Shown piece after piece: positions 387 to 12,907 of a DNA stretch of 12,909 bases (position 1 is the stretch's first letter; the number at the start of each line of letters is the position of its first letter). Source of the DNA: Candidatus Heimdallarchaeota archaeon (GTDB lineage Archaea; Asgardarchaeota; Heimdallarchaeia; Heimdallarchaeales; Kariarchaeaceae); the NCBI GenBank assembly GCA_015523565.1, contig WAKA01000135.1, positions 1-12,909 on the forward strand. The letters are read 5' to 3'. The notes under the pieces were generated by a model. That model was given only the letters and a program-made list of their open reading frames with translations. It ran no database searches and was not told the origin of the DNA. The translations under genes were made by a program, and so were the position numbers.

Positions 387-2375
387 ATGATAGGAAAGAC
401 ATTTTCAAAAGTACTGTCATCAATTTTGATTTTCCTGATGATCATTTCAGGATTTTCCAATATCCCGATTCAAAACAGTTTTCCAACCCAAAATGCCCTA
501 GCCAATCCACAACGGATTGATTTGGGAAACGGAACTTGGGTTGAGATAACTGTCAACGGAAATATCACCACATTGATGTTTTCTGACACTTCAATGATTA
601 TTGTCAACGCTTCCAGTGATGTGACAACAATTGAATTCTATGAGAGTATTGAGTCAATTAACTTCACAAGACTCTCCATCATTGCCAATGAATCCTTTTC
701 TTCTACAGTCTATCCATTTGACAACGTTCAAATACCAACAACAACAGGTTTTAAGATAGATCTTGTTCAAAGGTTGACAAGTGAAATAATTTTGGGGAGT
801 TGGGAATTTCTATCCTATTCTTCCTTTGACAGTTCCCATTTCAGTATGTTTGAAATGCAATCTCAACAAATGATCAATTCAACAGCAAACAGGATGTTCA
901 ATGCCATTATTGCTGCAAATCAAACAAAATTTGGTGCTTCTTTTACATCATACGTTTCATCAACAGGAGATATGGTTTCGCTTGATTTAAATGGTGATAC
1001 CTCATCTCCTGCAAATTCCACTTTCCTGTTGAGAAATGAGGGTGGCGGATACAGCGCAAATTATTCAATAGACTCAGGTCAAGACCCTCAAAATAGTGTT
1101 GATTCATTTTTCGATGTTTTTGCATCTTATATGGATCAAACAGGAAATGGAAACCAATATGAAATGTCAGGAAAGATTTTGGATTTCCTGTCTTCCTTTG
1201 ATTTCAGAAATGTTACTTCTGGTTTTCAAGACAGTTTGCTTTTGGAACAGGGAATGCCACCTCAAACAGTTCGTTATCCTTCAAACGGTGCAGTGGACAA
1301 TCCAAATGATCCTTTTGACATCATAGACGTCATTATAATGTCTGAAATGATTACTTTTGTATTCGGGGGCTTGTCTGTTGTACTCTTCCCAGATAAGCTT
1401 GTGGTAGATTATTATACATTCGATGGACTTTATGTACCCATTGTTGTGTTCTTTGAAACGTTGGAGATCCATGTCATCATTATGGAAATAACAATCATTG
1501 TTTATATGCAATCCATAGAACTCCTCATGGTAATTATAATCCAAGAAATCATCAAAATTGAGGTATACATTCAATATATTGTCTTGGTTGTTGAAATTCT
1601 TGAGATAACTATAATAGAGATAACATTGACATTCATTGACATTGATATAACAATAATTGAAATTTCAATAACTGTCAACATCTGGATTTTCAAGATAATC
1701 ATAAAAGTTGTCAAGAAAGTCATTATCTTCCTTCCTTTCTGGATACTCATTATTCCAATATTCATTCCTGTACCTGTTCCATTCTTTGTCCCTGTGCCCA
1801 CACCAGTGCCTGTCCCAGTACCCCAAACAATTGTCAATCTCTACAACCAAACCCTTGATGAAAGAAATGATGTGATGAACTTGACTTATTATGTTTCAGA
1901 TGAGTACGGCAATCCGATTTCTGGTGCAAATCTGACATTGACAATGAATACTAGACCTGGAATAATATATAATGGAAGTGAAATCATTAGAAAACCTGGG
2001 TACTATGAATTCACTAATTTACCATTGGATTTGAATGTTGAAATTACTGTTACAGCGGACACGAATTCATATCGGCCCTTGGGATTCATTACGCATGTCA
2101 TAACAATAAATGATGTGACAGATACTGTAATTGTTCCTTCAAATGTTACAGTCACAAATACTGCAACTTATGTCCAATATTCAAATGTAACAACTACAGT
2201 ACCTAATGGCACAATTACTCAAACAATCGTGCAGAATAATACAGTCACTAGTACGGTCAATAATAATTCAACAGCTAGCACCACTCCAATAAACTTGCCA
2301 TTAATGATAATTACGACTATCGCTCTTTCCCAATTAATGGTAATCATACGAAAAAGACGGAAACAGAAAATTTGA
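387..2375 (+). CDS. Secreted, C-terminally membrane-anchored surface glycoprotein with an Ile/Val-rich tract, (PV)n repeat, Ig-like domain and Thr/Val/Asn-rich linker; function unknown
   Basis: 662-aa ORF. It has an N-terminal signal (MIGKTFSKVLSSILIFLMIISG) and a beta-rich N-region. The Ile-rich tract is at 1440-1766 and the PV repeat at 1755-1823. An Ig/Big-like segment follows (LTYYVSDEYGNPISGANLTLT...PGYYEFT). There are many N-x-S/T sequons and a C-terminal TM + RKRRKQK. Confidence 0.85.
   Translation: MIGKTFSKVLSSILIFLMIISGFSNIPIQNSFPTQNALANPQRIDLGNGTWVEITVNGNITTLMFSDTSMIIVNASSDVTTIEFYESIESINFTRLSIIANESFSSTVYPFDNVQIPTTTGFKIDLVQRLTSEIILGSWEFLSYSSFDSSHFSMFEMQSQQMINSTANRMFNAIIAANQTKFGASFTSYVSSTGDMVSLDLNGDTSSPANSTFLLRNEGGGYSANYSIDSGQDPQNSVDSFFDVFASYMDQTGNGNQYEMSGKILDFLSSFDFRNVTSGFQDSLLLEQGMPPQTVRYPSNGAVDNPNDPFDIIDVIIMSEMITFVFGGLSVVLFPDKLVVDYYTFDGLYVPIVVFFETLEIHVIIMEITIIVYMQSIELLMVIIIQEIIKIEVYIQYIVLVVEILEITIIEITLTFIDIDITIIEISITVNIWIFKIIIKVVKKVIIFLPFWILIIPIFIPVPVPFFVPVPTPVPVPVPQTIVNLYNQTLDERNDVMNLTYYVSDEYGNPISGANLTLTMNTRPGIIYNGSEIIRKPGYYEFTNLPLDLNVEITVTADTNSYRPLGFITHVITINDVTDTVIVPSNVTVTNTATYVQYSNVTTTVPNGTITQTIVQNNTVTSTVNNNSTASTTPINLPLMIITTIALSQLMVIIRKRRKQKI
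1755..1823 (+). repeat. Protein-level Pro-Val dipeptide repeat (PIFIPVPVPFFVPVPTPVPVPVP)
   Basis: Degenerate CCNGTN hexamers with varied third positions. Confidence 0.85.
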
Positions 2376-2727
2376 TGGATATGATTCTTCTCAATTAAAA
2401 AACATGTTTCTTGTTTATATTCTGTGATTTCTATTTTTACATTATTGCTAGACAACCAATCACCATTTTTCTAATTTTTGCGTCATAATCAAAATTTATT
2501 TCACAAATGAATGATCCTTTCAATAAAATATGTCGCATACTACATTTGCATACATAACTAGTTCAATAATTGCCATTTTTCCATATTGGAAACAATTACT
2601 TGAAAGAACTGGGTGACTTGAGACAAGACAAAAGTTGGACAAAAATGTTATTCGTAGTTGCTGACTCTTATAAGGTTTGATAGAAAATATAGAAAAAGAC
2701 AATGCTATTCTTTTTAATTAATTATGA

Positions 2728-2970
2728 ATGAGATTGGATAATATGGATGACTCCCCACCAACCAATATGATTGACACAAACAAAGGAGGTCTGGTTGCTT
2801 TAGGATTTTTTTTAATTGCCCTTGTTCATTTATTTTTCTTTAATACTGGATATCCAATCCCATTTTTCTGGATTACCTCCTTTGAAACGTTTATTGTTAG
2901 TGCTGTCGTGTTTTTGGTCATTTTCACATTGATCTATTTCAAACTGATTATCCCATTTATCCGTAGTTGA
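2728..2970 (+). CDS. Small two-TM membrane protein, hypothetical (start could be 2728, 2743 or 2767)
   Basis: 80-aa ORF with two Phe/Leu/Ile-rich hydrophobic segments separated by NTGYPIPFFW. It is co-oriented with its neighbours. Confidence 0.65.
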   Translation: MRLDNMDDSPPTNMIDTNKGGLVALGFFLIALVHLFFFNTGYPIPFFWITSFETFIVSAVVFLVIFTLIYFKLIIPFIRS

Positions 2971-3059
2971 AAGATGTAATTTGTTTAATTTTCTCATATC
3001 TGACAAGATCAATATGTGCTTTGTGTCACCAAACTACTTTGATGGGCACAATTGTTCCT

Positions 3060-3075
3060 TAAACACTTATTTAAT
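3060..3075 (+). promoter_or_regulatory. Candidate BRE/TATA promoter for the 3096-10888 operon
   Basis: AAACAC-TTATTTAA, with the TATA-like element 22-29 nt upstream of ATG 3096 and no SD. This fits a leaderless first gene. Confidence 0.35.
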
Positions 3076-3095
3076 TCAAATAAATAAGAAATACA

Positions 3096-5609
3096 ATGAA
3101 TAAACATTATACACGGCTATTGATTATCTTTTTCCTATTTGGACTATTTGTCTTTGGTCTAGGAAACTCTTCACCAATGAATATGGTAAATGAAAAGAAA
3201 CTGTTCGCAAGTAATGATTTAACCATCTACCCAAATGTCCCTCCAGATCTTTTGGACAGGGCAAGAACTGCAAATTTCATAAGGGAATCAAGGTATAGTC
3301 TCTCAAAAAACGCCACTTCCATTGATAAAATATTTTATAGAATTGGTGCCTTAAGACTTCTGGACCCTGACTTATCAAATCTCACACAATCACAAAAAGA
3401 TTATCTGATCTCGCAAATACTATCTTTTCAAAACACTAATTTTGGATTTGGAGATTGGTATAAAGACAGAAGTTCTGTAACTGGAACATACAAGGCTGTT
3501 CAAAGCCTAATTTGGCTTGGTTACAATGGGTTGAACACTGCAAATGTCAAACAATATTTGGATGCACTTTTGGTTCCATTGACAAATTCATTCAAAACTT
3601 ATCTGTCAGATAGTGACGGTGACCTTTATGCAACATCCATTGCAGTGTTGACATATTCATTACTTAATGAACCTGTTCCTTCTTCAACAAATGTTGCAGA
3701 TACATTGTTAAATGGTCAAAATTTAGACCCTTCATTTGTACCACCCCAAGAAATAGGAGGGTTTGGTCTTCAGACAAATTCTAAAAAATCAATCTATTGG
3801 ACATCTTCAGTGGTACTGACTTCTTATGCTTTGGAAGCATTGAATAAATTGGGGATGAATGCTAATGATACCAACAGTGCTATTTCATTCATCAAAAATC
3901 TACAATTAAGCAACGGAGGTTTTGTGGATGTCACAACACAAACATCATCGTCTGCATCATATTCTGCAAGGGCAATTGTTGGATTGAATCTATTAGGGTC
4001 ATCTCCAGTGGACACTGCCAAAGCCGCATCTTATCTTAAAGGACTTCAGTCATCAAATGGTGGCTATAGGTTAAAGGACACAAGTGTGGCTCCTTCATTG
4101 AAAGGAACATACTTTTCATTGTTGGGTCTTTCCTCTTTGAATGTTGTTCCTGCAAATATTACAGAAACAGTAAATTATCTTGTGAATTTGCCAGACATGG
4201 TTGATGGATATGGGGCAAATCCTGAAAGCGAACCAAATTTGAGAACTACATTTGACGGGGTGTATTCACTTGTCCTTATGAACAGAACAATTACAAATAA
4301 GCAGAGGTTACTCAATTATGTTGAAAGCTATAGAAATAATGACAATGGTTTCGGACTGACGGGTTCTTATGTTGAATCAACATTCAGAGCTGTAACAATC
4401 TATTCACTTCTAAACATGTCAATGCCTTCTGCATCTGGTGTAATTTCCTTCCTTCAAAGCTTACAACAACCAGATGGTGGCTTTTCAAAAACTCCTGGAA
4501 ATACAACCTCTTTTGTCATTTCAACCTATAGGGCCATTGTTGCCTTGAAATTATTGGGAGCTACACCAACAAATGTAAATGGTGCCATCTCATATCTTAA
4601 AAGTACACAGAACACTGACGGTGGTTTCGGAGGCTATGTTGGTGATATTAGTGACGTCAGTAGCACATATCGCGCTGTAAGAGCACTTTCACTTCTCAAT
4701 GATACATCCTTTGATGTCACTGCGGCAGTCAGTTTTCTTAAAAATTCCCAAAATCCTGACGGAGGTTTCAAACGAAGTTCTTATGACAATGCTCTCCCAA
4801 ACAATGTGTCTCATGCTATTTTTACTTATTCTGCTGTTCGAGCATTAATTATCTTGCGTTCTCTTCCAAACAACATTTCTGGGGTTTATTATTATCTTAA
4901 AAGCCTGAGAAACAATGACGGTGGATACGGAAAGCATCCAGATTTTACCTCTGATCTTGCATATACATTCTCATCATTGTATGTCCTTTCACTTCTGCCA
5001 GAAATAACAGGTTTCAAGGCAGTTCTGCCAGGAAATCTAGATTCACTAAGATCACAATACGATAACTTTTCAGTGACGATTTCCAGTGAATTGTACCCCA
5101 TGAATTATTCAATATCCATTGCAAATTCTTCAAGTGTGATTAATTCAGCAACTATTAATAACGCATCTGGGACTTTCGTGGTTGATACCTCTTCTTTCAC
5201 AAATGGTATGCATGTTATGAGGTTGACAGTAGTTGATGGATCGTTTGGAATGATCAATCAAACATTTAAGATATTGATCTCCAATGTTATTGTAACTTCT
5301 AGTACAAGCAATTCCAATACAACCAGCTCAACTGGTACGACATCAACAACTAATTCTTCTTCAATCACAACTAATTCCTCAACGACAACAACAAATTCGT
5401 CCACTGTAAATATAACATCCAATTCAACCTCTTCATCTTCAATCATTTCAACTAACGAGAATTCAACTCAATCGTCGACAACAATCAGTTCTCAACCGCC
5501 TCCACTCGAAACTGGAGGAAACAATACTCAATCTCTAATAATATTTGTTGCCGTAGGAGGTATTGCACTTGCGGTGATAGTGATCATTATATTCCGTTTG
5601 AAAAAATAA
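3096..5609 (+). CDS. Surface-anchored prenyltransferase/squalene-oxidase-repeat protein (12 repeats, probably two alpha/alpha barrels) + Ig-like domain + Ser/Thr linker + C-terminal TM
   Basis: Repeated YL/FLxxxQNxDGGF/Y...S/DxxSTYRAVxAL units (LQLSNGGF, LQSSNGGY, LQQPDGGF, TQNTDGGFG, SQNPDGGF, LRNNDGGYG) match the Prenyltrans (PF00432)/QW-type repeat. It also has a signal peptide and a C-terminal TM + RLKK. Confidence 0.88.
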   Translation: MNKHYTRLLIIFFLFGLFVFGLGNSSPMNMVNEKKLFASNDLTIYPNVPPDLLDRARTANFIRESRYSLSKNATSIDKIFYRIGALRLLDPDLSNLTQSQKDYLISQILSFQNTNFGFGDWYKDRSSVTGTYKAVQSLIWLGYNGLNTANVKQYLDALLVPLTNSFKTYLSDSDGDLYATSIAVLTYSLLNEPVPSSTNVADTLLNGQNLDPSFVPPQEIGGFGLQTNSKKSIYWTSSVVLTSYALEALNKLGMNANDTNSAISFIKNLQLSNGGFVDVTTQTSSSASYSARAIVGLNLLGSSPVDTAKAASYLKGLQSSNGGYRLKDTSVAPSLKGTYFSLLGLSSLNVVPANITETVNYLVNLPDMVDGYGANPESEPNLRTTFDGVYSLVLMNRTITNKQRLLNYVESYRNNDNGFGLTGSYVESTFRAVTIYSLLNMSMPSASGVISFLQSLQQPDGGFSKTPGNTTSFVISTYRAIVALKLLGATPTNVNGAISYLKSTQNTDGGFGGYVGDISDVSSTYRAVRALSLLNDTSFDVTAAVSFLKNSQNPDGGFKRSSYDNALPNNVSHAIFTYSAVRALIILRSLPNNISGVYYYLKSLRNNDGGYGKHPDFTSDLAYTFSSLYVLSLLPEITGFKAVLPGNLDSLRSQYDNFSVTISSELYPMNYSISIANSSSVINSATINNASGTFVVDTSSFTNGMHVMRLTVVDGSFGMINQTFKILISNVIVTSSTSNSNTTSSTGTTSTTNSSSITTNSSTTTTNSSTVNITSNSTSSSSIISTNENSTQSSTTISSQPPPLETGGNNTQSLIIFVAVGGIALAVIVIIIFRLKK
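5295..5492 (+). repeat. Low-complexity Ser/Thr/Asn linker with repeated TTNSS units
   Basis: TSSTSNSNTTSSTGTTSTTNSSSITTNSSTTTTNSSTVNITSNSTSSSS..., with seven N-x-S/T sequons in 66 codons. Confidence 0.85.
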
Positions 5610-5627
5610 ATTTAAAGTGATTTAGCC

Positions 5628-8600
5628 ATGAGGTCTTTATTTCTTTTAATGTTCTTATTGTTCGTATCATTCATGGCTGATCCTATAACCAGCAAATCTG
5701 TGGCTATGAATTATTCTAAGACAAGCAATGACCAAGACCCAACTCCTCTTGATTTCATAAAATTATCTCAAGACGATGATTTTGATAACCTTAAATCGAT
5801 GGATATTGCTTATTATAAAATTAACACTCTTGAATACCTTCAACAGCTATTTAGTGTCGCGACCAATGAGACACTCAATAACTTTGAAGAAAAAGCATTG
5901 GATTTCATAATGTCCTCATTTTCAAATGGATCTTGGGCAAATTGGAAAGGGTCACGTCCATCAATGGAATCTACTTTTCAAGCACTTATATCCCTAAACC
6001 ATACCTCAAATATGAATCTAATTACTCAAAGTCAAGCCATTGAGATAATCAATTTCTTAAATTCATTAAAAAGACCAAATGGCGGATTCTTTCCCTTGCA
6101 AAATTGGGATGTCCCAGATGTATCCTCTACTTATCGTGCATTGGTTTTAGAAAGAATATTGAAAAGACATTTTCCAAATTTGCCAATTGAATTGAATAAA
6201 ACTGGTGTTGTTGATTTTGTTCGTTCCACATATAATGAACCTGTTTTCATTACTGGTGCTTCTGCCTATGGTGAAATTCAAGGTGGAAAACCAGAAATTC
6301 TTGCCTCTTTGTTTTCCTTGTATGTCCACATCTTCATGAACCAAACTGACCCACATGTAAGCAATGTCATTGCTTTGATAAATTCCTTCACCTCCCCAAA
6401 TGGAGGTGTTGCAGGGTATTCTGGTAGTTTAGTGCAGACTGGATACACGGCAAGAGCAATTGAATACTATCTTCTTGTAAAATCATATTATCCTGATCTA
6501 TTGCCTTTGTTCAATGAAAATTTCTTGGAAAATGCCGCCAATTATATCACATCAAATCAACTTTCCAATTCTGGTTTTGGTTCAAGTGAAACGGATAGGT
6601 CTGTGTCCATCTCAAGTACATTTTTCGCTATGAGGATTGCATTTCTCACAAGAAATGAAATAAATTTGAATATTGACCCTGTTGGTGTCTTAACTTATTT
6701 GCTCACTCCAAACCAGCCAACCTTTGGAATTGGTGACTTCCCAGGAAATGTTCCCTCCGTGGTTGAAACTGCTCGAGGAATTTTGACTGGAAAACTATTG
6801 GGAAATCTGGATTGGCTCCACCCAAAAACCATTGATTATATCACTGATACATTTTCCGAAAAGGAAGGGGGTTTCGGATTTCGTCCTCAGTCGAATCCCC
6901 GCATAAAATATACTTATTATGGCATTTTGGCATTAAGGGCATTAGGAAAAACAATTTCAAATCCCAAGGACATTGTTAATTTTATTCTTCAATCTGAGGT
7001 AGATACTGGTGGTTTTGGGCAAATTCCTGGAGCTCATTTCAGTTACCTGACACATACATATTGGGCATTGAAATCCCTAAATCTATTGGGACATTTCTAT
7101 CCTATCAAATTTAACAAAACAAAGCTAATAGAGTGGTTAAAGGGTCTTGAAAATCCCAAAACAGGGATGTACCGAAATTCTCAAACTGGAGAAGATTCAA
7201 TAATTTCAACTTTTCGAGCCGTTGAAATACTGAAGTTATTTGATGTTGCAATTAATTCCTCAAAGATTTTAAATTCAGTTCAGTCATATGCGGTTCCAAC
7301 AGGTGGATTTGTGAATAAACTAAGCAAAACAGTTCCAACAATGGAAGCAACATATTTTGCATTTCAATTGATTCATTCATTAAATGGATCAATTTCATCA
7401 CTATCCGTTTTCAAAAAATTTGTGGAATCGTTAAAAAATGCAGATGGCGGATATGGATCAAGGCTTGGATTTTCTTCTAGGGTAACTGCTACATTTTATG
7501 CAATATCATTGCTTAATCGTCTCAATTCAAGCGATAATGCATTCAATTTTGGTGAAGGGCTTGATAAGGATTTATTTGCCCCTCTAATTATCCAAAGCTT
7601 TGTGCCTTCAATAAATAATTATCAACAATTTTCTGGATCATACATTACTGAGGCTTCAATTCAAGATCCTGAAACACATGTAGATCAAGCATGGGTAGAG
7701 GCCACTTGGACAGATGGACAAATAAATAAAACATTTACATTTATTGGATATCAAACCAATAATTCCCTATGGAGATTTACTATAGGCTCTTTCAAAGATG
7801 AAGGAATTATTCAGTTCCAGATTGTCGCTAATGATACAAATGGAAACATAGGCAAAACTGACTTTTTCTACCTGAAGGTCAAATCCATTGCAACAGGATC
7901 ACAATACGTGCAAATAAACTTAATTCAATTCCTAATCAGAACCTTCATTCCTTTCCTAATGCTCGCGGTTGCCTTTGCTGATCTGATCTACTCAATCAAA
8001 AAACAATATTCCAAGGAGGTTATCAAAAAAATGTATAAACCATCAAAACAGTCTGAATGGACTGACCTAGAAATTTTCAATGGATTTCTATTGATCATAA
8101 CAATGATCGTAATTGCAGAAATTGCACGGCTTGTCCTAAAAGACACTCAATTCATTCTTCAAAACAGTCTTTTTCTATTTAGGTTCCTTTTGGCCATTCT
8201 CTTAGTGCTCTTTGCCAAATATTCTCTTGGTGTCCATACTTATGGATTATTTGCGCCAAGTGTTCTTGTCATCTCTATGATTCAAATTGGACCATTTTGG
8301 GGAACAATCCTGTTTTTCAACATTTTTACATTGCTTTATCTTGTTAGAATTTTAATTGAGCCGTATGCTTTTCCTGTTGGATTTAGAATTGGAATTATGA
8401 TGGTTTTCAACATTTCCTTTTTAGGACTTCTGGAAATGATTGGAGAAGTCTATCGTATCCCATTCCTAAGCACTGCAATATTTGTCCCCATCATTATCCT
8501 TCCGTGGATAACAGATAGGTATGTAAGCAATGTAATTCAAAATGATCATCTCTTTGCATTTTCGAGATTACTGTTTACCCTTGCAATTACATGGGGATCG

Positions 8601-9740
8601 TATTTCTTGATGAGCAATGATACAGTTGTTACATTTGTTACCCTTAATCCTGAAATTTGGATACTTCTCGTTGGAATTATTGTGTATTATGGACGGGGCA
8701 GGCGTTATACTATTTTAGATAAAAGAAGGTTCAGGAAACTTTTCAGTAAAAAAGAGGACCCCTTAAACATAATTGTCAGGAACCAGAATTACATTGCAAA
8801 ATACAACCCCCCTGAAATTTTCCCCCTAATGAATAAATTCGATATGAAACTTCAATTTGAAAAATGGAATGTACCTACTCCAACGATTTATGCGGTAATT
8901 TCTGAAATAAAGGACATTCGCCCTACTCTAAATTCTCTTGTCTCAAACCCAAGGTATTCAAACGGTTTTGTAGTTAAACCAACTCAAAGTTTAGGTGGAA
9001 TGGGCATCATTGTGATCACAAAGGTATTGCCTGATAGATCATTGCAAATAGGAAATGATCTTTATGACTATACTGCAATAGAAAAAGAAATGACGAAAAT
9101 CATCCAAGGCGAATATCTTTCCACCCAAACATCTTCAGAAAATGATATTATTCTAATAGAGGAAAGGATTGTACTTAATGAATTCTTCAAAAGAATCTCT
9201 GTCGGTCTTCCTGATATACGTGTAATTGTATTTAATGGCATTCCTGTTATGGCAATGACCAGACTTCCAACATCAGAAAGTGATGGCAAAGCAAATCTAA
9301 AACAAGGTGCTATCGGTGCAGGTATCGATATGGAAACTGGTGAGATTTTTCATGCAGAATGGAAACAACATGAAGTAAAAATTCACCCAGATACAAAACA
9401 GCCAATTCTGGGCATCAAAATTCCACAATGGAAAGAAGTCTTGGCAATTGCATCCTTGGCACAAAGAAGTAGTGGTCTAGGATATGCAGGTGTTGATTTG
9501 GTTATGGGAACTGTTGGCAACCAATCAAAAATTTTCGTTTTGGAAATCAATAAAAGACCAGGACTTGAAATTCAGAATATCAATCAATCAAGTCTCTTGA
9601 ATAGACTCGACTTTATTGAAAAGCAAAAAATGAATTTTACAAATAGATCTCCTCTTGCCTCTGCAAATATGGCAATCAAATTGGGGAAGGTTTGGAAAAA
9701 ACAAAACTGGGAAAAATCCTTCAAGGAGGAAATGACATGA
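5628..9740 (+). CDS. Multidomain fusion: signal peptide + 12 prenyltransferase-type repeats + Ig-like domain + multi-pass 7TM_transglut-type membrane domain + alpha-L-glutamate-ligase-like (RimK-related, ATPgrasp_ST/TIGR02291-type) ATP-grasp domain
   Basis: Repeats at ~5790-7530 (LKRPNGGF, EKEGGFG, DTGGFG, LKNADGGYG). Membrane-domain motifs are GVHTYGLFAP (8229), PIIILPWITDR and NPEIW...GRGRRYTILDKRRF (8646-8732). ATP-grasp motifs are RNQNYIAKYNP, FVVKPTQSLGGMGI (8967), GLPDIRVIVFNGIPVMAMTRLPTSESDGKANLKQGA, HPDT, GLGYAGVD and LEINKRPGLEIQ (9540). Confidence 0.9.
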   Translation: MRSLFLLMFLLFVSFMADPITSKSVAMNYSKTSNDQDPTPLDFIKLSQDDDFDNLKSMDIAYYKINTLEYLQQLFSVATNETLNNFEEKALDFIMSSFSNGSWANWKGSRPSMESTFQALISLNHTSNMNLITQSQAIEIINFLNSLKRPNGGFFPLQNWDVPDVSSTYRALVLERILKRHFPNLPIELNKTGVVDFVRSTYNEPVFITGASAYGEIQGGKPEILASLFSLYVHIFMNQTDPHVSNVIALINSFTSPNGGVAGYSGSLVQTGYTARAIEYYLLVKSYYPDLLPLFNENFLENAANYITSNQLSNSGFGSSETDRSVSISSTFFAMRIAFLTRNEINLNIDPVGVLTYLLTPNQPTFGIGDFPGNVPSVVETARGILTGKLLGNLDWLHPKTIDYITDTFSEKEGGFGFRPQSNPRIKYTYYGILALRALGKTISNPKDIVNFILQSEVDTGGFGQIPGAHFSYLTHTYWALKSLNLLGHFYPIKFNKTKLIEWLKGLENPKTGMYRNSQTGEDSIISTFRAVEILKLFDVAINSSKILNSVQSYAVPTGGFVNKLSKTVPTMEATYFAFQLIHSLNGSISSLSVFKKFVESLKNADGGYGSRLGFSSRVTATFYAISLLNRLNSSDNAFNFGEGLDKDLFAPLIIQSFVPSINNYQQFSGSYITEASIQDPETHVDQAWVEATWTDGQINKTFTFIGYQTNNSLWRFTIGSFKDEGIIQFQIVANDTNGNIGKTDFFYLKVKSIATGSQYVQINLIQFLIRTFIPFLMLAVAFADLIYSIKKQYSKEVIKKMYKPSKQSEWTDLEIFNGFLLIITMIVIAEIARLVLKDTQFILQNSLFLFRFLLAILLVLFAKYSLGVHTYGLFAPSVLVISMIQIGPFWGTILFFNIFTLLYLVRILIEPYAFPVGFRIGIMMVFNISFLGLLEMIGEVYRIPFLSTAIFVPIIILPWITDRYVSNVIQNDHLFAFSRLLFTLAITWGSYFLMSNDTVVTFVTLNPEIWILLVGIIVYYGRGRRYTILDKRRFRKLFSKKEDPLNIIVRNQNYIAKYNPPEIFPLMNKFDMKLQFEKWNVPTPTIYAVISEIKDIRPTLNSLVSNPRYSNGFVVKPTQSLGGMGIIVITKVLPDRSLQIGNDLYDYTAIEKEMTKIIQGEYLSTQTSSENDIILIEERIVLNEFFKRISVGLPDIRVIVFNGIPVMAMTRLPTSESDGKANLKQGAIGAGIDMETGEIFHAEWKQHEVKIHPDTKQPILGIKIPQWKEVLAIASLAQRSSGLGYAGVDLVMGTVGNQSKIFVLEINKRPGLEIQNINQSSLLNRLDFIEKQKMNFTNRSPLASANMAIKLGKVWKKQNWEKSFKEEMT
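9724..9729 (+). promoter_or_regulatory. Shine-Dalgarno sequence for the transglutaminase gene
   Basis: AGGAGG lies 7 nt upstream of ATG 9737, which overlaps the upstream stop (ATGA, 9737-9740). Confidence 0.75.
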
Positions 9741-10888
9741 CGAACGAGGTCAACAATGCCACTGTTAAACTATTGGCTATTCTTCTGGTGGTGTCAATAA
9801 TTTTCGGCACATTTGTTTTCTTGTATACCGAAGAAAATAATGAAATACTTAAGGGAGAAGCTAATTTTCAACTTCATTACATCTATACCCTGAAAAATGA
9901 AGGTCCCCTAAATCTGAGCTTTGTATCTTTGAGACTTGCTCTCCTTAAATCTTGGGAACCTGTACAAAGAGTGGACAGTATCAGTTATGCACCAATGGCT
10001 AACCGAACAGCATCAGACCAATACAACAATTCATTTATTTATTATGAATTTGACTTTTTTGGGGTCAATCAGACTCTTCAGGTTGAAGTTTATGCAAATC
10101 TTACTCTTTACCTGCTTGATTATGCAAATGCAAAATTGACGATATATCCTTATGACCCTAATGATAGGCTTTATGCCCTATTTCTTGCATATGATCAATA
10201 TGCAGATACAACAGATCCTGCCGTTAGATCTATTGCTAATTCATTTCCTGTCACAAATAATCCAATTGAAGATGCATATTATGCATATAATTTTTCTTCG
10301 ACTTTTATAAAATATAAACTTCTAAGTAAAGTGAAAGGGGCAAGTTTCGCAATTAGAAATGGCTATGGGGATTGTGACGAATATACGACCCTGTTCATGG
10401 CTTTAACTAGGGCTCGTGGGATACCTTCAATTGAACATTCGGCATGGCTTGGTGATTTCGTTGAAGGATACAATGGAACAGACAATGGTGCTGCGGCACA
10501 TGCCTATCCTATGTTTTATGTGAATGGAATTGGTATGCTTCCGGCAGATCCAACAAGAGGAAATACCAATTTCTTTGAGAACTGGCTGAAAACAGATGAA
10601 AAAAGAATTACCTTGACAAGAGGTCCAGATAAACCATATCGCCACCTGACTTATAGATGGATACCAAAGGAAAATATTTCTGACCCCCAAATATTCTCTG
10701 AATATCGAATTTTTATTGATAAGCTAAATATCAATTATTTTTCAAGAATCAGAACTACAATTTTTGTTATACTAACCGCTATGCCTGTAGTTTTTGTTGG
10801 ATATTCTGCTATTGCAGGTAGAAGGGCATACAAATTGAAACAAGAAAAAGTCAAAAAAATCCTCATGGATCATCTTACTGATAACTAA
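9737..10888 (+). CDS. Membrane-anchored transglutaminase-like (Transglut_core) enzyme with intact catalytic triad, 383 aa
   Basis: GDCDEYTTLFMALTRARGIP (Cys 10373), HAYP (His 10499) and ADPT (Asp 10547). There are TM helices at both ends and many N-x-S/T sequons. I revised the start from 9692 to ATG 9737 on the basis of the SD and the ATGA overlap. Confidence 0.9.
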   Translation: MTNEVNNATVKLLAILLVVSIIFGTFVFLYTEENNEILKGEANFQLHYIYTLKNEGPLNLSFVSLRLALLKSWEPVQRVDSISYAPMANRTASDQYNNSFIYYEFDFFGVNQTLQVEVYANLTLYLLDYANAKLTIYPYDPNDRLYALFLAYDQYADTTDPAVRSIANSFPVTNNPIEDAYYAYNFSSTFIKYKLLSKVKGASFAIRNGYGDCDEYTTLFMALTRARGIPSIEHSAWLGDFVEGYNGTDNGAAAHAYPMFYVNGIGMLPADPTRGNTNFFENWLKTDEKRITLTRGPDKPYRHLTYRWIPKENISDPQIFSEYRIFIDKLNINYFSRIRTTIFVILTAMPVVFVGYSAIAGRRAYKLKQEKVKKILMDHLTDN

Positions 10889-10945: not shown

Positions 10946-11863
10946 ATGATTTCTCTTGAAGACCGTGTCAGAGGATATATATTCGGTTCTGCAATTGGTG
11001 ATGCATTCGGTAGGGCTGTTGAATTTGATTCCTATAAGCAAATTCTCTCTAAATATGGCGAAAATGGTATTGTTGACCTTATCACAGACGATTGGACTGA
11101 TGACACACAAATGATGCTTGCAATCGGAAACGCATTATTGAAAACCCACGATAAAAATGAAACGGCTATACTAGACTCCATTGCAGAAAATTTCATCAAA
11201 TGGATGGATGACCCTGGCTATGCACCTGGTTCGACATGCATGAGTGGATGTGCAAACCTAAAATCAGGAATTCATTGGAGTAAATCTGGTATTCCTTGGT
11301 CAAAAGGATGTGGAAGCGTTATGAGGTCTGGTGTAATCGGTTTTTTCTTTAGGAATGATATGGACAAACTCAAATCAATAGCATCAAAATCAGGATTGAT
11401 GACTCATGCCCATCCAACAGCAGATGCGGCATGTATTGCAGGTGCATTGTCCATCAATTATGCACTTAAGGGATTGAAGACCCCTCAAATTTATGAAAAA
11501 GTCAGATCCGAAACATTAGGGATTTCTCAGGAATTTACAGACAAAATTGATCAGATGGCACGTATTGCCCAATCTCAAACACCAAATCGTGAAGGGATTA
11601 TTTCTCTTGGACAAGGGTGGGTTGCAGACGAAGCCTATGCAATGGCTCTTTACTCGCTTTGGCGAACAAACAATTACCAAGATTTGGTGGTTCTTGCGTC
11701 AAATCATGATGGTGATTCCGATAGTGTTGCTTGTATTGCAGGTGGGATTTTTGGAGCAATGAATGGCATTTCATCAATCCCACAAGAATGGATCGACAGG
11801 CTGGTGAAAAAAAACATTCTTGCAAATTTTGCAGATATGGTTATTGAGGCTATCAAACAATGA
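10946..11863 (+). CDS. ADP-ribosylglycohydrolase family protein (DraG/ARH-like)
   Basis: GSAIGDAFGRAVEF, WTDDTQM, GCGSVMR, THAHP and DGDSDSVACIAG are the canonical motifs, with the metal-binding acidic residues intact. 305 aa. Confidence 0.93.
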   Translation: MISLEDRVRGYIFGSAIGDAFGRAVEFDSYKQILSKYGENGIVDLITDDWTDDTQMMLAIGNALLKTHDKNETAILDSIAENFIKWMDDPGYAPGSTCMSGCANLKSGIHWSKSGIPWSKGCGSVMRSGVIGFFFRNDMDKLKSIASKSGLMTHAHPTADAACIAGALSINYALKGLKTPQIYEKVRSETLGISQEFTDKIDQMARIAQSQTPNREGIISLGQGWVADEAYAMALYSLWRTNNYQDLVVLASNHDGDSDSVACIAGGIFGAMNGISSIPQEWIDRLVKKNILANFADMVIEAIKQ

Positions 11864-11911: not shown

Positions 11912-12907
11912 TCAGAACTCTTTTCCTTTTGCATTGTGACTCTTTTTTGAAAAAACAACCAGTGTCATCAAATTCAACAAATTAAACAAAATCAAAACCT
12001 TATTCCAAAATAGCTTGGCTTGGTTTGAATAATTATAATAATTCCCATTTCCAAATATCGATACAATTTTCTTAGCACTGCCATTCAAAAAGAACAGTCC
12101 AGTTGTTTCAAATTTCTCAGCCTCCAAAAATCCTTGTGGATAATCAAAAAGATTGAGCCATGCAAGAAACTTGAAATCTTTTTCAATGGTTTTGACCTGA
12201 CCCAATATTGTTTTCAAGTATTGCACTTGATAATCCATGTCCTCATTAAACATTGCTGAAACGCCTGTCTCAACAATGGCCCACGAATCTGCATTTGTCA
12301 GGGAAAGATACAAATCAAGTTTCTTTTCTATCATTTGCGCATTTGGATGTCCTAATATTCCATCGTATGTGGACAGCCCAAATATGTCATAGAACCCATC
12401 TAATTTTTTGGTGAAATTCAAGGAAAAATCATCTTCAATTTCTTTTCCCTCAAAAATCAGAGTCAATCCAAAAATTCCTACAATCTTTATGCCATCAAAT
12501 GCCTTATCATTTCGAACCATTTCATAAACCTGTTTTACAAAGTTTATGTATTCACTTTGGCTACTGTCAATATTGTCTCTATAATAGAAATTGGCTTCAT
12601 TGCTGAATGAAAGATACTTGATGTCATACCTTGAGACAAGTAATTTCAAGAATGAAAAATATCTATTCACCACTATTGAGTCATCCAATGCTTTTCCCTC
12701 TAAATCCTTTGGCACCTTAAAATCAAGAGTGTTGATAGGTCCCACGCTTATTGAGACATCCATTTTTCGGAAACTCAATGACGCAATCCAATGGTCTAAA
12801 ACAGTCCATATGTATTTTTTATGATCCACTTCAATATCTCCCCAAAGATATTGCCGATGCTCCAATGTCACACCCGAACTTTCTGCGAGATCATATCCCT
12901 TGTCTGA
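11912..12907 (-). CDS. Clan GH-A-like glycoside hydrolase TIM barrel with C-terminal membrane anchor (partial, 5' end beyond the right edge)
   Basis: The frame stays open to the window edge (SDKGYDLAESSGVTLEHRQYLWGDIE...KYIWTVLD). SFSNEAN is a likely acid/base motif and IVETG a likely nucleophile motif. AWLNLFD...TGLFFLNGSAK follows, then a hydrophobic C-terminal helix + basic tail. Confidence 0.7.
   Translation of the reverse strand, partial: SDKGYDLAESSGVTLEHRQYLWGDIEVDHKKYIWTVLDHWIASLSFRKMDVSISVGPINTLDFKVPKDLEGKALDDSIVVNRYFSFLKLLVSRYDIKYLSFSNEANFYYRDNIDSSQSEYINFVKQVYEMVRNDKAFDGIKIVGIFGLTLIFEGKEIEDDFSLNFTKKLDGFYDIFGLSTYDGILGHPNAQMIEKKLDLYLSLTNADSWAIVETGVSAMFNEDMDYQVQYLKTILGQVKTIEKDFKFLAWLNLFDYPQGFLEAEKFETTGLFFLNGSAKKIVSIFGNGNYYNYSNQAKLFWNKVLILFNLLNLMTLVVFSKKSHNAKGKEF

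Follow-up and report, generated by a model that had tools for sequence, protein, structure and literature searches.

What do three tightly linked membrane-protein genes on contig WAKA01000135.1 of a Candidatus Heimdallarchaeota archaeon (assembly GCA_015523565.1) do together, and how many of the surrounding genes belong with them? The stretch analysed, referred to here as the window, is this entire contig of 12,909 nucleotides (nt); it comes from a metagenome-assembled genome (MAG) of 3.57 Mb, which is approximately 90% complete, and its GC content of about 35% is even along its length. A first-pass annotation of the window had proposed that five co-oriented genes at positions 387–10888 form one cell-envelope system for peptide ligation and cross-linking. 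Three of these genes, here called A, B, and C, recur together in other genomes, whereas the other two, which encode a protein of 662 amino acids (aa) and an 80-aa open reading frame (ORF) product, are not conserved neighbours. Judged from these comparisons of sequence and gene order, A–B–C is a real and dedicated module, though an accessory one. We put the chances at about even that its three products constitute a single machine in the membrane, a variant in archaea of the RloB/RloC system of bacteria, in which ligation inside the cell is followed by processing outside it.

Conservation of the three-gene module

The genes at positions 3096–10888 are as tightly linked as had been annotated, with an 18-nt gap between A and B and an ATGA overlap of the stop codon of B with the start codon of C. 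This overlap, together with a GGAGG upstream, indicates that C starts at ATG 9737 and not at TTG 9692. Hydropathy identified signal or anchor helices in each of the five products of 387–10888, in agreement with the original description of all five as secreted or membrane proteins. The sole cysteine across A, B, and C is Cys213 of C.

Homologues of A, B, and C do co-occur in other genomes. The A–B–C order and tight spacing were kept in all related loci with full flanks, and the genes flanking them varied (several Heimdall families and Thorarchaeota); orthologues of A lay directly upstream of B in every locus with flanks. In a phylum-wide survey of 400 sampled Asgard genomes, an orthologue of the ligase encoded by B was found in 17 genomes, 16 of which also had an orthologue of the transglutaminase encoded by C, and the two genes were adjacent wherever one contig carried both. 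In one genome (G014), they were located at the ends of two different contigs, and in the only genome with a ligase alone (G018), the contig stops inside B. Because its distribution is patchy, covering ~4% of the sampled Asgard genomes, the module appears to be accessory. Some of the orthologous matches in four genomes (G003, G079, G353, and G355) contain one in-frame stop codon, TAA or TAG.

At the level of protein clusters, the fusion of toroid, 7TM, and ATP-grasp domains that characterizes B was found in approximately 27 clusters, of which the informative labels were Heimdall-, Thor-, or Odinarchaeota; the closest cluster bears the generic label "Methanobacteriota archaeon". The transglutaminase family of C comprised 42 clusters at E ≤ 1e-102, with the next match at 1.6e-7, and the contig assignments suggest that at least 19 of the 42 share a contig with a fusion-protein cluster. 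Loki-type genomes (family f20) and other Asgard genomes also contain paralogous transglutaminase ORFs of ~400–580 aa (E 1e-20 to 1e-37 against the C profile), which are not accompanied by an ATP-grasp protein. These second-tier paralogues in the Loki-type genomes were ruled out as instances of the same module, with the ligase occurring in 0 of 135 of the family.

Architecture of the three proteins and their relatives

Profile hidden Markov model searches returned PF00432, PF14402, PF14397, and PF01841, and the domain calls of the first-pass annotation were thus correct. In B, the membrane region matched 7TM_transglut (PF14402) at 40.6 bits (cut-off 25, E = 2.7e-10, residues 854–1038), and hydropathy indicates about nine transmembrane (TM) helices between residues 765 and 1021. 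Because K/R-rich loops, located after the first and the last of these helices, flank the membrane region, the toroids of B are predicted to lie outside the cell and its ATP-grasp domain inside. Several charged or polar residues in or beside the membrane helices were invariant (R195, R268, GFR281, E297, GE301, D324, and PE370 in alignment numbering), and a broad protein-cluster search with the membrane domain recovered only 7TM_transglut clusters, all with scores <0.8. The C-terminal domain matched ATPgrasp_ST (PF14397) at 191.8 bits (cut-off 31.4, E = 1.8e-56). Its nucleotide and Mg motifs were all invariant among 11 orthologues, and the invariant ATP-grasp positions are K82, E143, D161/R163, N188, D255, and E271/N273 (alignment numbering). 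More specific models scored below their thresholds, including the RimK family TIGR00768 (20.7 bits against a cut-off of 143.4) and the RloB model NF052267 (20.5 bits against a cut-off of 900, over the TM part only). A profile search of the PDB with the ATP-grasp domain yielded weak matches of the RimK and PurD types, those to RimK being partial (E 0.003–0.09).

The product of C begins with a TM helix, which is followed by a beta-sandwich (residues 38–128), a transglutaminase core (144–334), a second TM helix near the C-terminus, and a basic cytoplasmic tail with the conserved pattern K..KL.KLL.P; at the very C-terminus, none of the three proteins is conserved. The core matched Transglut_core (PF01841) at 32.5 bits (cut-off 23, E = 1.1e-7), and C213, H255, and D271 were invariant across 23 orthologues. 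The structure predicted with AlphaFold2 (mean predicted local distance difference test, pLDDT, 86) consists of the beta-sandwich followed by the transglutaminase core, and its fold matches were 3isr (E = 3.9e-15) and the periplasmic domain of TgpA (6g49/6g4h, ~1e-6). The combination of the two domains is the same as in TgpA of Pseudomonas aeruginosa and in the putative cysteine protease 3ISR of Cytophaga hutchinsonii, but the sequence identity is merely 14–15%, and we know of no linkage of either protein to an ATP-grasp enzyme. C is therefore predicted to be a doubly anchored transglutaminase-fold enzyme with an intact Cys-His-Asp triad located outside the cell. The invariant ligase motifs, the invariant triad, and the predicted topology all favour the arrangement first suggested for the locus, that is, a conserved and dedicated module with an ATP-grasp enzyme inside and an intact transglutaminase outside.

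Gene A encodes a signal peptide, two tandem alpha6/alpha6 toroids (residues ~45–640), a juxtamembrane spacer, a Ser/Thr-rich stalk, a C-terminal TM helix (~810–833), and a basic tail, RLKK. Both A (E = 1.6e-55) and the ectodomain of B (E = 6.8e-37) matched the Pfam family Prenyltrans (PF00432), and BLAST and alignment identified their toroids as paralogous, with 23–26% identity. The AlphaFold2 model of A residues 30–660 (pLDDT 90.8, predicted TM-score 0.87) contained 24 helices, or 12 hairpins. In a Foldseek search, RabGGTase/GGTase3 beta subunits matched ~265 residues of this model at a root-mean-square deviation (rmsd) of 1.9–2.8 Å and a target-normalised TM-score of ~0.7, the best match being at TM-score 0.73 and rmsd 1.9 Å over 265 columns; two-domain squalene cyclases matched it poorly (rmsd ~12 Å). 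We thus interpret the model of A as a pair of alpha6/alpha6 toroids in tandem, arranged in a way that is peculiar to them. The sequence matches of the toroids included drimenyl-diphosphate synthase and squalene-cyclase repeats. A and B share the toroid fold and the PF00432 repeats with prenyltransferase beta subunits and class II terpene cyclases, but differ from them in carrying two toroids in tandem, in their predicted extracellular location, and in lacking the Zn site and the DxDD motif. Specifically, no Cys occurs anywhere in A or B, and a motif search of both found neither DxDD nor DxD[DE]. Because the toroids have neither the Zn–Cys site of prenyltransferases nor the catalytic acid of class II cyclases, they are most likely non-catalytic binding modules, and an enzymatic role for them was rejected on the same grounds.

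The relatives of the ligase occur in a wide range of architectures. In some Asgard lineages, B occurs naturally in two parts, a ~820-aa toroid protein and a 7TM–ATP-grasp protein of ~565 aa (L036:1214-5387, from a Heimdallarchaeota MAG; P0355–P0361). Forms of 7TM–ATP-grasp with ~550 aa are found in other archaea and in bacteria, and a haloarchaeal 7TM–ATP-grasp protein was recovered as well. A cluster labelled Bathyarchaeota (P0034, P0036, and P0037) joins 7TM_transglut, ATP-grasp, an extra TM helix, and Peptidase_S8 in a single polypeptide; because the extra helix precedes the protease, this subtilase is expected to lie outside and the ligase inside. A giant bacterial relative has the order transglutaminase–7TM–ATP-grasp–TM–TPR, and its transglutaminase gave a weak BLAST match with C (E = 0.42). 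Retropepsin–ATP-grasp fusions were also found, as were fusions of ATPgrasp_ST with MATCAP (tyrosine carboxypeptidase, PF08014; P0039 and ~80 similar proteins), with labels that include Patescibacteria, Gracilibacteria, and Peregrinibacteria. The last of these, a bacterial ligase/carboxypeptidase fusion, recalls the tubulin tyrosination cycle of eukaryotes.

In a quick maximum-likelihood tree of the ATP-grasp domains (60 rows, arbitrary root), the toroid-associated Asgard ligases, both fused and split, formed one clade (Shimodaira–Hasegawa-like approximate likelihood ratio test, SH-aLRT, 100), within which the split forms occupied at least two places. This clade was nested in that of all 7TM-fused forms (support 98) and lay apart from the clades of standalone RloC-like, retropepsin-fused, and MATCAP-fused ligases. 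Its sister group (support 86) consisted of toroid-less 7TM–ATP-grasp forms, and the locus of one member was examined (L051:7001-10278; Ga0315314_1000237, a Joint Genome Institute metagenome). There, a 575-aa 7TM–ATP-grasp protein overlaps, again by ATGA, with a 517-aa transglutaminase that has a signal peptide, a beta-sandwich plus core, and a C-terminal anchor, and that is 30% identical to C with GDC..H..D kept. Because this toroid-less sister retains the ATGA-coupled pair, the core of the system can be identified as the pair of 7TM–ATP-grasp protein and anchored, triad-intact transglutaminase; both A and the toroid ectodomain of B are a lineage-specific addition to it. The same contig also encodes an EF-G/EF-2-family gene and a DUF2110 gene.

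Possible function and relation to known systems

No description of this architecture was found in the literature searched. Of all relatives, only the RloABC operon of P. aeruginosa (named for retropepsin-like osmotic stress tolerance; PMC11957051 / bioRxiv 10.1101/2025.03.18.643919) has been studied, and its biochemistry is unknown. The defects of a triple mutant of periplasmic retropepsins are rescued when either rloB or rloC is deleted (PMC11957051), from which we infer that a product whose formation requires the cytoplasmic ligase may reach the periplasm, via or on the 7TM protein, and need a protease there. Comparison of the domains and their architecture confirmed the relationship, already recognized in the first-pass annotation, with the proteobacterial system of 7TM and alpha-L-glutamate-ligase-like proteins, as well as the difference in layout. 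RloABC and the Asgard operon have in common a cytoplasmic ATPgrasp_ST/alpha-L-glutamate-ligase-like enzyme, a 7TM_transglut domain, an operon-encoded enzyme of hydrolase type outside the cytoplasm, and a biochemical product that is unknown. In contrast to RloABC, the Asgard system, with an archaeal host, combines the ligase and the 7TM domain in one polypeptide, has a tandem alpha/alpha toroid as the 7TM ectodomain in place of an inactive transglutaminase, uses an intact-triad transglutaminase-fold Cys enzyme outside in place of a retropepsin, and adds a second toroid surface protein. A retropepsin of the RloA type (PF05618) was found neither in the operon nor in the ~90% complete genome.

In the mechanism that we propose for A, B, and C as one machine, the ATP-grasp domain of B would act as an ATP-dependent ligase of the RimK/RloC type, making a short peptide, a poly-amino-acid chain, or the peptide tail of a carrier. 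The RloB-type polytopic domain would then pass this product to the outer face of the membrane or present it there, as suggested by its fusion to the ligase, by the conserved charged residues within its membrane helices, and by the genetics of Rlo. Outside the cell, C would take the product onto its active-site Cys, and the acyl-enzyme could be resolved by water, which would trim the product in the way attributed to the protease RloA in Pseudomonas, or by an amine on a surface acceptor, which would attach it, much as CapD attaches poly-gamma-glutamate. The toroids of A and B may bind or scaffold either the product or the acceptor. Because fusions to hydrolytic peptidases recur in the ligase family, trimming appears at least as likely a role for C as attachment by cross-linking, and C may have either role or both. 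The earlier remark that no peptidase is visible at the locus is therefore doubtful: the transglutaminase-fold Cys enzyme may itself be a peptidase, and domains of the retropepsin, subtilase, or MATCAP type are found fused to related ligases.

Several points weigh against this interpretation. The peptide product, its passage out of the cell, and the reaction of C are all putative, no substrate gene was found in the operon, and the distribution of the module is patchy. B does not reach the equivalog level of TIGR02291 (alpha-L-glutamate ligase-like; 231 bits against a cut-off of 314.2), and phmmer found no PDB match for its ATP-grasp domain. Because the ligase lies below this cut-off and has no close solved relative, neither profiles nor structures assign it an amino acid specificity. 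Domains of the 7TM_transglut type are not known to have a transport function. By its sequence, C could equally be a peptidase or a transferase, and genuine transglutaminases use Gln side chains, not Glu chains. When the membrane domain of B was co-folded with C, the score was 0.55 (best of three controls, 0.00), with a contact agreement of ≥83% between runs and a partner pLDDT of ≥84. Of 80 solved complexes, 58 reach the co-folding mark, as do 2 of 110 mismatched pairs, but passing scores of ≤0.60 were obtained for only seven of the 80 solved complexes and for both passing mismatches, and support for the modelled contact is accordingly weak.

The explanation first offered for the locus, in which the ligase makes oligo- or poly-Glu that is exported through the membrane domain and cross-linked by the transglutaminase, with the 662-aa protein as substrate and the toroids as scaffold, now seems improbable. 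Poly-gamma-glutamate made and anchored by CapB and CapD offers a precedent, the ligase is RimK-like, and the transglutaminase triad is intact and outside the cell; furthermore, among enzymes that might form the Glu–Lys cross-links of pseudomurein, exported transglutaminases are at present the leading candidates (PMC11915815). Nevertheless, the 662-aa protein is unlinked to the operon in two genomes that carry it (G001 and G007) and has its own upstream neighbour in the first of these, and a specificity of the ligase for Glu is not established. Because the donors of transglutaminases are Gln residues, a Glu chain would require transpeptidase chemistry, and the ligase–peptidase fusions point at least as strongly to trimming.

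Quite improbable, in our view, is a wholly cytoplasmic ligase that modifies the tail or a loop of a membrane protein, possibly A, B, or C itself, in the manner of RimK acting on RpsF or TTL acting on tubulin, with the 7TM domain as an anchor or regulator and C as an independent enzyme, such as a surface-protein protease. Besides these precedents, the ATP-grasp–MATCAP and retropepsin–ATP-grasp fusions without 7TM_transglut may act in the cytoplasm, and C carries a conserved basic tail on the cytoplasmic side. However, the variable extreme C-termini of the three proteins fit such a role poorly, the strict translational coupling and co-occurrence of the ligase with the outside enzyme are hard to square with independence, the conserved charged residues of the membrane domain point to a function beyond anchoring, and the Rlo genetics tie the ligase to periplasmic proteases. 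It is extremely improbable that the toroids are active isoprenoid enzymes, either prenyltransferases or class II terpene cyclases, that remodel lipids or prenylate surface proteins with the ligase and transglutaminase as accessories. Their best fold matches are indeed prenyltransferase beta subunits, and they resemble drimenyl-diphosphate synthase and squalene-cyclase repeats, but the Zn-binding Cys and the DxDD motif are missing, the predicted extracellular site is remote from prenyl diphosphates, and the sister clade functions without toroids.

The Rlo-like machine also invites comparison with other pairs of synthetic and processing enzymes. In the poly-glutamylation of S6 by RimK/RimB and in the TTL/MATCAP tubulin cycle, as in the ligase fusions described above, an ATP-grasp ligase is paired with an antagonistic peptidase; RimK/RimB and TTL/MATCAP operate entirely in the cytoplasm, on protein tails that have been identified, whereas the Asgard system is embedded in the membrane with its partner enzyme predicted outside. 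The CapB/C/A/D system of Bacillus combines an amide ligase at the inner face, passage through the membrane, and, on the outside, an acyl-enzyme from which the polymer is either anchored or set free. Its likeness to the Asgard system is one of logic and not of homology, CapB being Mur-ligase-like and CapD a gamma-glutamyltranspeptidase. The fusion of the ligase to the membrane domain and its coupling to an outside Cys enzyme constrain the direction of the pathway, with synthesis inside and processing outside, and the two-gene core of 7TM–ATP-grasp protein and anchored transglutaminase narrows what needs to be reconstituted. The cassette is also a candidate cell-surface determinant in Asgard archaea, relatives of eukaryotes whose surface is barely characterized. 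A bolder extension, which we consider unlikely, is that some Asgard archaea, and other archaea by means of the toroid-less pair, have an extracellular poly-amino-acid or peptide polymer that is made by the ATP-grasp enzyme and fixed to toroid-bearing surface proteins by a transglutaminase-fold transpeptidase. If this were true, the polymer would be a new layer of the archaeal envelope, functionally like an anchored poly-glutamate capsule or the cross-links of pseudomurein.

Neighbouring genes and coordinates of the window

Features of the window and homologues of the 662-aa protein. Positions without a locus prefix refer to the 12,909-nt window; domain and catalytic assignments are predictions.
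Feature	Position	Strand	Basis
662-aa protein ORF	387-2375	+	ORF list
80-aa ORF (putative gene)	2728-2970	+	ORF list
Gene A, 837 aa	3096-5609	+	PF00432
A–B intergenic spacer, 18 nt	5610-5627	+	sequence read directly
Gene B, 1370 aa	5628-9740	+	PF00432, PF14402, PF14397
B ectodomain: signal peptide and tandem toroids, residues 1-~640	5628-7544	+	PF00432, BLAST against A, alignment
B conserved juxtamembrane domain (640-~760) and RloB-type polytopic membrane domain (765-1021)	7545-8732	+	PF14402, hydropathy, alignment
B cytoplasmic ATP-grasp amino-acid ligase domain, residues 1036-1370	8733-9740	+	PF14397, alignment
Gene C, 383 aa	9737-10888	+	PF01841, 23-orthologue alignment, AlphaFold2 model, fold matches
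C catalytic Cys213 codon	10373-10375	+	motif GDCDEY
C catalytic His255 codon	10499-10501	+	motif AHAYP
C catalytic Asp271 codon	10547-10549	+	motif ADPTRG
ADP-ribosylglycohydrolase	10946-11863	+	profile match, PF03747 1.4e-69
ORF at the 3' end of the window	11912-12907	-	ORF list
Homologue of the 662-aa protein	L021:1495-3438	-	
Homologue of the 662-aa protein	L022:1486-3402	-	
Homologue of the 662-aa protein	L023:1474-3429	+	

The genes on either side of the module were not kept with it. The ADP-ribosylglycohydrolase gene, 57 nt downstream of C, was dropped as a member because it is a neighbour of the operon in no related locus, and the minus-strand ORF at the end of the window was dropped because it is not kept at any of them. 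The 80-aa ORF likewise has no conserved counterpart at related loci. The 662-aa protein, for which no Pfam match was obtained, has homologues in three related genomes. In the operon-bearing G001 and G007, these are encoded on contigs separate from the operon, and the homologue in G001 retains the upstream ORF of the window as its neighbour. By its genomic context, the protein is a separate unit, and its candidacy as the substrate of the system, which the first-pass annotation had put forward, was dropped. Its central ~150 residues consist almost solely of Ile, Val, Glu, Thr, and Lys (e.g., EIIKIEVYIQYIV..EIL.IT.IEI) and are followed by a PVPVP-type linker. A tandem-repeat scan found no DNA repeats behind this Ile-rich segment, which is kept in four genomes at an overall protein identity of 37–46%.

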